Sequence record: PV018827
DNA length: 64,000 nucleotides
Strand: one strand, 5' to 3'
DNA from: Escherichia phage KM01
Numbering within the stretch: the first letter of the stretch is position 1; the number at the start of each line of letters is the position of its first letter. The notes beneath the pieces are model-generated. The model was not told the DNA's origin, made no database searches, and worked only from the letters and a program-made list of their open reading frames with translations. The translations under genes were made by a program, and so were the position numbers. This document shows, piece by piece, positions 31,970-33,236 of the stretch.

Positions 31970-32849
31970 AAATATCATCCTGAGCTTGAGCAATAATCCA
32001 ATCTAGATCTGATACTGCTGATTCAATAATTGAGTCATTAAACAGTAGATATGTTTTTCTCTGTTCGCCTTCAATATATGAGCGAGAGTCTCCATCAAAA
32101 GAGCAACCATCTCTAAGAACTTGTACAACTTGGACATGGAAATTCTTTTCTAGTTCTCGTACCTCTGCATCAAAACCTCCGTCAGTAAACATGACAATAT
32201 CATCCTGACCTAACCCTTCTTGTTTGATGCTTTTTACAGCAAGATCCCCCATATGGCTGTTGCCAAACATAGGTTTTAAGAAGTCTTCACTTGTAGAAAT
32301 CATCAAATCTCTTACAGACTTCCCTCCCCATTCTGGTCTAGGTTTTTCTTTCCATTCACGGTCTTCATAGCGTGCTAGAAAGTTTTCTAGAGGTATGCCT
32401 AGTGCAGCAGCAGCTACCTTGTACATTGGCTCCTTGAAGGATTTGGTTGAATAATTGTGATGGTATGAATGGGCATTGACCCAAGCATTGGCTATCGTAT
32501 CTTTACCACAACCCGGAGGCCCATTAAGAATTACTACTAAAGGCTTATAATGGGAATCTCCCACCATATTGGTCAGTGCTGGATTGCCTTGAGATTCCAT
32601 TTCTAATTGCTCCGTGTGGTCATGTGAGTAGTCTACTGGAGAAGTTTTGTTACCAGTAACTTTAGGTAAAATCGCTCTAGTTGTTTCTACGTATTTACCG
32701 CCATCAATATTGATTTGAAACTCTACAAGCTCATTCTGTAACTCATATCCTGATAAGTTGGATAGCTCCTCCAACTCATCTCTGACGAAATTTAAATGTT
32801 TGATTTTAATTGCAAGAGCTTTCTTTAAAGCTTTTACCTCTTCATTCAT
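31956..32849 (-). CDS. P-loop nucleotide kinase (dNMP-kinase-like) with N-terminal extension
   Basis: Walker A LNGPPGCGKDT resembling T4 dNMP kinase P-loop; ATG 32849 overlaps the stop of the upstream frame (ATGA). Confidence 0.5.
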   Translation of the reverse strand: MNEEVKALKKALAIKIKHLNFVRDELEELSNLSGYELQNELVEFQINIDGGKYVETTRAILPKVTGNKTSPVDYSHDHTEQLEMESQGNPALTNMVGDSHYKPLVVILNGPPGCGKDTIANAWVNAHSYHHNYSTKSFKEPMYKVAAAALGIPLENFLARYEDREWKEKPRPEWGGKSVRDLMISTSEDFLKPMFGNSHMGDLAVKSIKQEGLGQDDIVMFTDGGFDAEVRELEKNFHVQVVQVLRDGCSFDGDSRSYIEGEQRKTYLLFNDSIIESAVSDLDWIIAQAQDDIYGRS

Positions 32850-33236
32850 TCCCACTCTCCAGTGATTTCCATATCGGCTTTATCTCCTTTCTTAGTAAGG
32901 AGGATTGCTGGTTTATTCTTACTCTTCATATACTCAAACATGTGCATAGAGCCTCTTGACTCTCCATCCCAGAAGACTATCACTGCATCTGCATACCCCC
33001 ATATCTACGTTTCTAAGTATCCCAGCCTTTTTGCCGAGAGTGTTCCATGAAGGAATGAAACGTTTGATGGGTATGTCATTGTGCTTAGCAACAGCCTCTC
33101 CGTGAAGATCTGGCCCTCTTGCACCACCTGATACAACTTCTGAAATCAGCTTGGGGATTTCCTCTGGAAGCAAAGCCCACATCTGAGTAAAAGAATGCCA
33201 GTCTATCGACCGGCTTCCTGCGATTATTACTTTCAT
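32846..33236 (-). pseudogene. SLOG/DUF2493-like Rossmann protein interrupted by a frameshift at a C5/G5 homopolymer
   Basis: N-terminal part (VIIAGSR...VVSGGARGPD...AGILRNVDMG) in one frame; conserved C-terminal part (YADAVIVFWDGESRGS...) in the +1 frame ending in ATGA overlap with downstream ATG; junction at run 32996-33000. Confidence 0.45.

Follow-up and report, generated by a model that had tools for sequence, protein, structure and literature searches.

A frameshifted copy of the phiEco32 gp35-like SLOG gene in the Kuravirus Escherichia phage KM01

Genomic context of the broken gene

Escherichia phage KM01 is a Kuravirus (PV018827; 75,964 nt, 42.2% G+C, with which the window agrees in base composition) that was announced in 2025 together with KM02 and had been isolated on E. 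coli K-12 from activated sludge (PMC12424339). We analyzed a window of 64,000 nt of this genome, and all positions below refer to it. Its best matches in the phage collection reached 97 to 98% identity over 24 kb, and the region described here shows 97.9 to 99.3% identity to phiEco32-like podophages of E. coli (genus Kuravirus). On the minus strand of this region, an ORF of 100 codons (32934 to 33236) encodes the N-terminal part of a gp35-like SLOG (DUF2493/YAcAr) protein. Its translation comprises 80 native codons (33236 to 32997) and 20 out-of-frame codons, closed by a TGA at 32936 to 32934; the protein reads MKVIIAGSR...EVVSGGARGPD...AGILRNVDMG and then runs into the out-of-frame tail VCRCSDSLLGWRVKRLYAHV. 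Alignment to intact relatives places a run of five Gs (minus strand; C5 on the plus strand) at 32996 to 33000. From 32995 the +1 frame is open, its continuation beginning with YADAVIVFWDGESRGSMHMFEYMKSKNKPAILL, and the resulting C-terminal remnant (32846 to 32995, minus strand) is made of 49 codons, YADAVIVFWDGESRGSMHMFEYMKSKNKPAILLTKKGDKADMEITGEWE, and a TGA at 32848 to 32846. This remnant carries the invariant YAD / WDGxSxG motif, and its protein is identical in that part to the EK5 orthologue. A preliminary description of this DNA had reported an N-terminal half running in one frame into a short tail and a stop at 32934, a C-terminal continuation intact in the +1 frame with a TGA overlapping the downstream ATG, and a C5/G5 run at 32996 to 33000; ORF checks and translation confirmed each of these features, and all of its coordinates hold.

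Sigma-factor, SLOG, kinase, and exonuclease genes form a tightly packed string on the same strand, since the stop codon of the sigma-factor gene overlaps the SLOG start. This upstream gene (33233 to 33880, minus strand) is a homologue of phiEco32 gp36, and the overlap with the ATG of the N-terminal ORF has the form ATGA. At the other end, the TGA of the remnant (32848 to 32846) overlaps in the same way the ATG (32849 to 32847) of a dNMP-kinase-like gene (31956 to 32849, minus strand; 297 aa, P-loop GPPGCGKD), which has its own GGAG 7 nt upstream of the ATG. Gene callers annotate a 31-codon ORF within the remnant (32846 to 32941, minus strand), which also appears as a 31-aa gene in Logan assemblies. 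It starts at an ATG (32941 to 32939) that shares bases with the premature stop (ATGTTTGA) and ends in a stop that overlaps the ATG of the kinase gene, an arrangement in which it could possibly act as a termination-reinitiation relay of translational coupling to the kinase gene. A look-up of the 31-aa remnant matched only the same phage and one contig-end fragment.

Several neighboring genes vary among relatives. The kinase position downstream of the SLOG gene is occupied by the 297-aa P-loop form in the window, phiEco32, and EK5 and by a 176-aa form in Paul, MN05, and a metagenomic lineage with a run of six Gs (G6, see below), whose copy matches DUF3310; two forms of the gene at a fixed position suggest cassette replacement. 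Two genes upstream of the SLOG gene, a Macro-domain (Appr-1-p processing) gene (33900 to 34340, minus strand; PF01661) is intact in the window; in Kuravirus it is a presence/absence accessory gene, and many of the listed records are without it. An HNH_3/AP2-type homing-endonuclease-like ORF (34554 to 34928, minus strand; 124 aa) sits between the i-spanin (35036 to 35380) and o-spanin (34340 to 34513) genes. EK5 and phiEco32 lack this ORF and their two spanin genes overlap; the stretch from 34555 to 35093 has no EK5 counterpart. At the 31151/31152 junction, the window is without a DNA N6-adenine methyltransferase gene of ~500 nt that directly follows the exonuclease gene in EK5 and EcM-vB1 and is absent in phiEc_1 and MN05.

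Family assignment and predicted fold

The broken gene is the orthologue of phiEco32 gp35 (phi32_35, YP_001671780; 393 nt, 130 aa, “GTP-binding domain”). Once the two bases are put back, the window protein and the EK5 orthologue agree at 130 of 130 residues, a match that, judged from the sequences, lies far beyond chance. The earlier assignment to SLOG/DUF2493 is well supported, with PF10686 above its gathering score and phrog_289 matching both pieces. The PF10686 (YAcAr/DUF2493) profile gave the N-terminal ORF a score of 29.6 bits and a 129-aa reconstruction, made by removing one G, a score of 28.9 bits, versus a cut-off of 28.2, and phrog_289 recovered the N-terminal piece with E=1.8e-12 and the C-terminal fragment alone with E=1.5e-4. 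PF10686 was present in most homologues and PF02481 also in some. Membership in DprA/Smf (TIGR00732, PF02481) was ruled out, TIGR00732 reaching 11.9 bits versus a cut-off of 191.15. The glycine-rich SGGARGxD loop is in frame and the YAD...WDGxSxG motif lies in the +1 frame, so that the family signature is spread over two frames; the window gene is a broken member of PF10686/SLOG. Viral YpsA-like SLOG domains have been predicted computationally to bind or cleave ADP-ribose-derived immune signals and often occur together with Macro domains (PMC9503650). For the family of the window gene, nucleotide binding or processing and a counter-defence role are predicted. Literature searches on phiEco32 gp35 and on the close relative YW01 returned nothing useful.

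Both sides of the break are strongly conserved. In an alignment of 65 diverse homologues, G7, R9, G37, A39, G41, D43, G46, W64, A71, G72, R75, N76, and M79 are invariant on the N-terminal side, as are W90, S94, and G96 on the C-terminal side, where Y82, A83, D84, D91, and G92 are nearly invariant. AlphaFold models the intact orthologue (pLDDT 94.6, pTM 0.89) as a Rossmann-like alpha/beta fold with strands at residues 2 to 7, 33 to 36, 57 to 59, 85 to 90, and 111 to 117, and the break after residue 80 falls at the end of the helix spanning 70 to 82, before the strand at 85 to 90. The truncated product is thus an incomplete domain without strand 4 (85 to 90), the helix at 95 to 106, and the last two strands, and a product lacking everything from strand 4 onward would, on this model, be unable to form a folded SLOG domain. 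A PDB sequence search gave nothing significant and no solved relative.

A two-base deletion beside an unchanged G run

The window gene aligns to the relatives with 391 nt versus 393 nt. After the Met79 ATG codon, phiEco32 continues with GGT GAG TAT, Paul with GGC GAG TAT, and EK5 and YW01 with GGG GAG TAT, all intact, whereas the window has the shifted GGG GTA T. Alignment with the same four phages leaves a 2-bp gap in the window, which is without the AG (or GA) of the Glu81 GAG codon: ATG GGG GAG TAT has become ATG GGG GTA T, with a G5 run of the same length. The junction of the deletion is on the 3' side of this run, between 32996 and 32995, where intact relatives have GGGGG-AG-TAT, GGGTGAGTAT, or GGGCGAGTAT and the window GGGGG-TAT; across the site, the deletion allele is GGGGGTAT and the intact allele GGGGGAGTAT.

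An extra G in the run was also considered and ruled out, as the alignment gives a 2-bp deletion and the run length is unchanged, being the same in the window, EK5, and YW01. The preliminary description had joined the two frames by removing one G. Arithmetically this does restore the frame, but it does not undo the actual event, in which AG/GA was lost beside an unchanged run, and the protein reconstructed in that manner has 129 aa and is without the conserved acidic residue 81. Its estimate of a full-length product of ~150 aa also has to be corrected, the intact product having 130 aa.

Conservation in Kuravirus and other frameshift alleles

To place the broken copy among its relatives, we used phiEco32 gp35 as the tblastn query in a census of the 60 best Kuravirus records, which represent 47 distinct phages. 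An uninterrupted 130-aa gene was found in 57 of the records and 44 of the phages. It was likewise intact in all five JGI metagenome contigs and in frame in the nearest relatives, at 99.3% identity; a scan of IMG/VR for more alleles returned only phiEco32 itself. A split shared by related phages, a possibility raised earlier, is contradicted by this comparison, in which 44 of 47 phages and five of five metagenome contigs carry the gene in frame. The median pairwise dN/dS of eleven Kuravirus copies was 0.06, and the gene is, by this measure, under strong purifying selection in the genus. Between the repaired window gene and EK5 there are three synonymous changes and no amino acid change, also past the break. 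The repaired protein being that of EK5, with no decay past the break, the break would be recent, and the evidence favors a disruption that is both recent and lineage specific.

The three exceptions in the census, EcM-vB1, EcP-vB, and EcK-vB, have a run of four Gs (G4), a one-base loss at the same place. They are sewage isolates on multidrug-resistant E. coli, EcM-vB1 coming from Egypt. Compared to MN05, EcM-vB1 (PV574017.1) presents more than 25 one-base homopolymer deletions and several split genes, which makes its G4 allele probably a sequencing artefact; the record has no annotation beyond 46 kb. A further allele with six Gs (+1, 101-aa product) was recovered from SPAdes contigs (ENA ERZ13616796 and ERZ13616587, one contig with a coverage of 106) and Logan assemblies (ERR4398817 and ERR4398780) of several metagenome samples, and this one looks like a real, independent frameshift, i.e., a natural knockout of the gp35 gene. 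Together, the two-base loss of the window and the G6 and G4 alleles indicate that the stretch is somewhat indel-prone, with in-frame alleles dominating. Combined loss of the Macro and SLOG genes was considered as a pattern and discarded; the G4 and G6 lineages are without the Macro gene, but the SLOG gene is intact in many kuraviruses that have no Macro gene either.

Evidence from reads and assemblies

KM01 was sequenced with Nanopore only (R10.4.1, Guppy 6.4.2 SUP, Flye, Medaka, 91x) and its genome received no short-read polishing (PMC12424339). With such a source, the deletion may be a basecalling error. The exact truncated 100-aa product was found in the Logan assemblies of two SRA runs, SRR33223178 and SRR33209174, the contigs of which match the window with 100% identity along 10.3 and 6.3 kb. 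Since these assemblies are k-mer based and carry the deletion, most raw reads must have it, and it is no artefact of Flye or Medaka. Taken at first as independent confirmation, the two runs were downgraded, as they belong to one Nanopore-only study by one lab; with laboratory and platform in common, a systematic basecalling error could be present in both. Both SRR33209174 and SRR33223178 contain the Kuravirus genome, and one of them should be the Kayfunavirus KM02, which suggests carry-over or mixed libraries.

When the 64 kb are compared to EK5, phiEc_1, and MN05, this deletion alone, of all indels within conserved coding sequences, has a length that is not a multiple of three. An error-prone assembly with many frameshifts was therefore ruled out, no other conserved coding sequence being frameshifted. 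Against the same three genomes, four other indels are unique to the window: T6 to T5 in an intergenic, terminator-like tail at 8913, A3 to A2 between the holin and lysin genes at 14582, and an in-frame loss of 3 nt and a change from A5 to A8 at 54033 and 63373, respectively. These four may be residual Nanopore errors or real polymorphisms. YW01 (PV018828), whose sequencing platform is unverified, matches the window exactly in the flanks, along 64 nt on the upstream and 33 nt on the downstream side, and has an intact GGGGGAG. It apparently comes from the same lab as KM01 (activated sludge, Japan, K-12 host, adjacent accession).

Weighing the alternatives

The two-base loss is, in our judgment, probably a recent and real knockout of the gp35 orthologue in the phage DNA; we assign about two thirds of our confidence to a real mutation and about one quarter to an artefact. 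In the latter case, which we hold to be unlikely, the phage DNA would have the intact GGGGGAGTAT and the basecaller would systematically drop two purines beside the G run, leaving reads, assembly, and GenBank record all falsely frameshifted. Such an error would fit an ONT-only genome without short-read polishing, for which a consensus near Q50 leaves, by our estimate, about one residual error in a genome this large. The lesion also touches a homopolymer, the intergenic indels at 8913 and 14582 are two other homopolymer differences unique to the window, and EcM-vB1, with G4 and more than 25 homopolymer deletions genome-wide, shows errors of this kind splitting this very gene. However, the length of the G run has not changed, and the loss of two bases outside a homopolymer is not the usual type of ONT error. 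It also counts against an artefact that no other conserved coding sequence in 64 kb is frameshifted, that the raw reads of two runs, assembled independently from k-mers, give the same result, and that YW01, apparently from the same lab, reads intact in an identical context of 100 nt. Of the homopolymer error proposed in the preliminary description, the possibility of a sequencing error survives, given the Nanopore-only source, but not the change in run length. Its suggestion of a recent pseudogenising mutation is the one we favor, the relatives being intact, the purifying selection strong, and the sequence past the break free of decay.

Expression that depends on slippage, also put forward there, finds little room in these data and is very unlikely. 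A +1 ribosomal frameshift on GGG-G, in which the tRNA-Gly re-pairs and UAU follows, or phase variation of the G tract would have to yield the full-length protein. AUG GGG GUA does allow perfect +1 re-pairing on GGG into the C-terminal frame, this frame is still perfectly intact, and other frameshift alleles occur at the same stretch, namely, the G6 of several metagenome samples and the G4 of three GenBank records. Against this, the split lacks conservation (the gene is in frame in 44 of 47 phages and five of five metagenome contigs, and unbroken in the closest relatives, at 99.3% identity), slow decoding is in our reading not expected of GUA as the A-site codon, the G4 records are error-ridden (EcM-vB1), and the slipped product would be without the conserved acidic residue 81. 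No stimulatory signals appeared either: there is no GGAGG-like (Shine-Dalgarno-like) element in the 20 nt upstream of the slip site, the downstream RNA is no more stable than its shuffles (z=+0.92, i.e., less stable), and an Rfam search for recoding elements gave no match. Phase-variable contingency genes usually have tracts of 7 nt or more, and this one, at 5 nt and of unchanged length, falls short of what classical phase variation or transcriptional slippage requires. A broader version, in which GGG(G)-GAG at codons 80 and 81 would be a recurrent frameshift hotspot serving as a crude on/off switch of SLOG counter-defence, with low-level +1 GGG-G slippage giving some full-length protein from “off” alleles, strikes us as highly improbable. 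Hardly credible is a two-piece protein in which the 100-aa N-fragment and a separately translated C-fragment of 31 to 45 aa would reassemble into an active SLOG domain. Reinitiation is conceivable, as the ATG of the C-terminal frame overlaps the premature stop (ATGTTTGA), and both fragments still match phrog_289. However, with a start at residue 86 (GTG) or at 98 to 100 (ATGs), the C-fragment would leave strand 4 and the YAD/WDG motif wholly or partly absent or detached, and the 20 nonsense residues of the tail would occupy the core. No relative in the census has such an arrangement.

A probable lineage-specific loss of gp35 function

We thus return to a real mutation as the preferred account. 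Two bases, the AG or GA of Glu81, would have been lost directly after the G5 run, most likely by slippage of replication across the G-A-G microhomology. Read in the shifted frame, the gene would give a 100-aa product of 80 native and 20 nonsense residues, and a product without strand 4 onward and without YAD...WDGxSxG would mean that the gene is knocked out. The event would be recent and lineage specific, and would fit the loss of an accessory gene dispensable on the laboratory host E. coli K-12. The comparisons above show the lesion itself, its derived state found in this phage alone, the purifying selection on the gene elsewhere, and where in the fold the break falls; we infer that the phage DNA, and not the reads alone, carries the deletion, and why it is tolerated. 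On sequence grounds, a programmed frameshift is set aside, and the locus would be an ordinary lineage-specific pseudogene or a Nanopore error left in the consensus.

There are consequences for annotation in either case. The record should carry a frameshifted gp35/DUF2493 pseudogene or, after resequencing, a corrected sequence, rather than two hypothetical proteins of 100 and 31 aa. A real deletion would make KM01 a natural knockout of a SLOG gene that is conserved and uncharacterised and for which near-isogenic intact relatives exist (YW01 and EK5), and this would bear on the predicted counter-defence role of viral SLOG domains.

Comparison with known systems

The closest known counterparts are phiEco32 gp35 and its Kuravirus orthologues, which, like the window gene, lie between the sigma-factor (gp36) and dNMP kinase (gp34) genes with ATGA overlaps at both ends. 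phiEco32 gp35 has 97.9% nucleotide identity to the window, and the repaired window protein is 98.5% identical to it. The difference is that these orthologues are unbroken over 393 nt, whereas the window copy has 391 nt and is frameshifted after codon 80. The records of EcM-vB1, EcP-vB, and EcK-vB also have this gene split at the G run, with a truncated “DUF2493 protein” as its annotation; there, one G has been lost, with many other homopolymer deletions (EcM-vB1), whereas the window has lost AG in an otherwise clean assembly. Compared to prfB-type +1 frameshifting, the locus has the slippery codon and has neither the conservation nor the stimulators. Phase-variable genes have a long tract that varies between close relatives, whereas here the tract measures 5 nt in the window, EK5, and YW01 alike.

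At the level of the family (PF10686/phrog_289), the SGGARGxD loop and the WDGxSxG motif are common to the window gene and 64 diverse homologues, although in the window the frame is lost for the C-terminal half of this domain; the functions of the members are predictions. By structure, the best matches of the intact orthologue model were the Rossmann-like domain of DprA/Smf (5mll, 4ljk, 3uqz) and the DprA-like ShosA (8zva), with Foldseek TM scores of 0.60 to 0.66 normalised to the query and a probability of 1.0, the SLOG domain of ThsA ranking below them. The resemblance to DprA is one of fold alone, as the sequence similarity is not significant (11.9 bits for TIGR00732 versus 191.15). DprA also has SAM and winged-helix parts, whereas the orthologue of the window gene is half its size and has neither.
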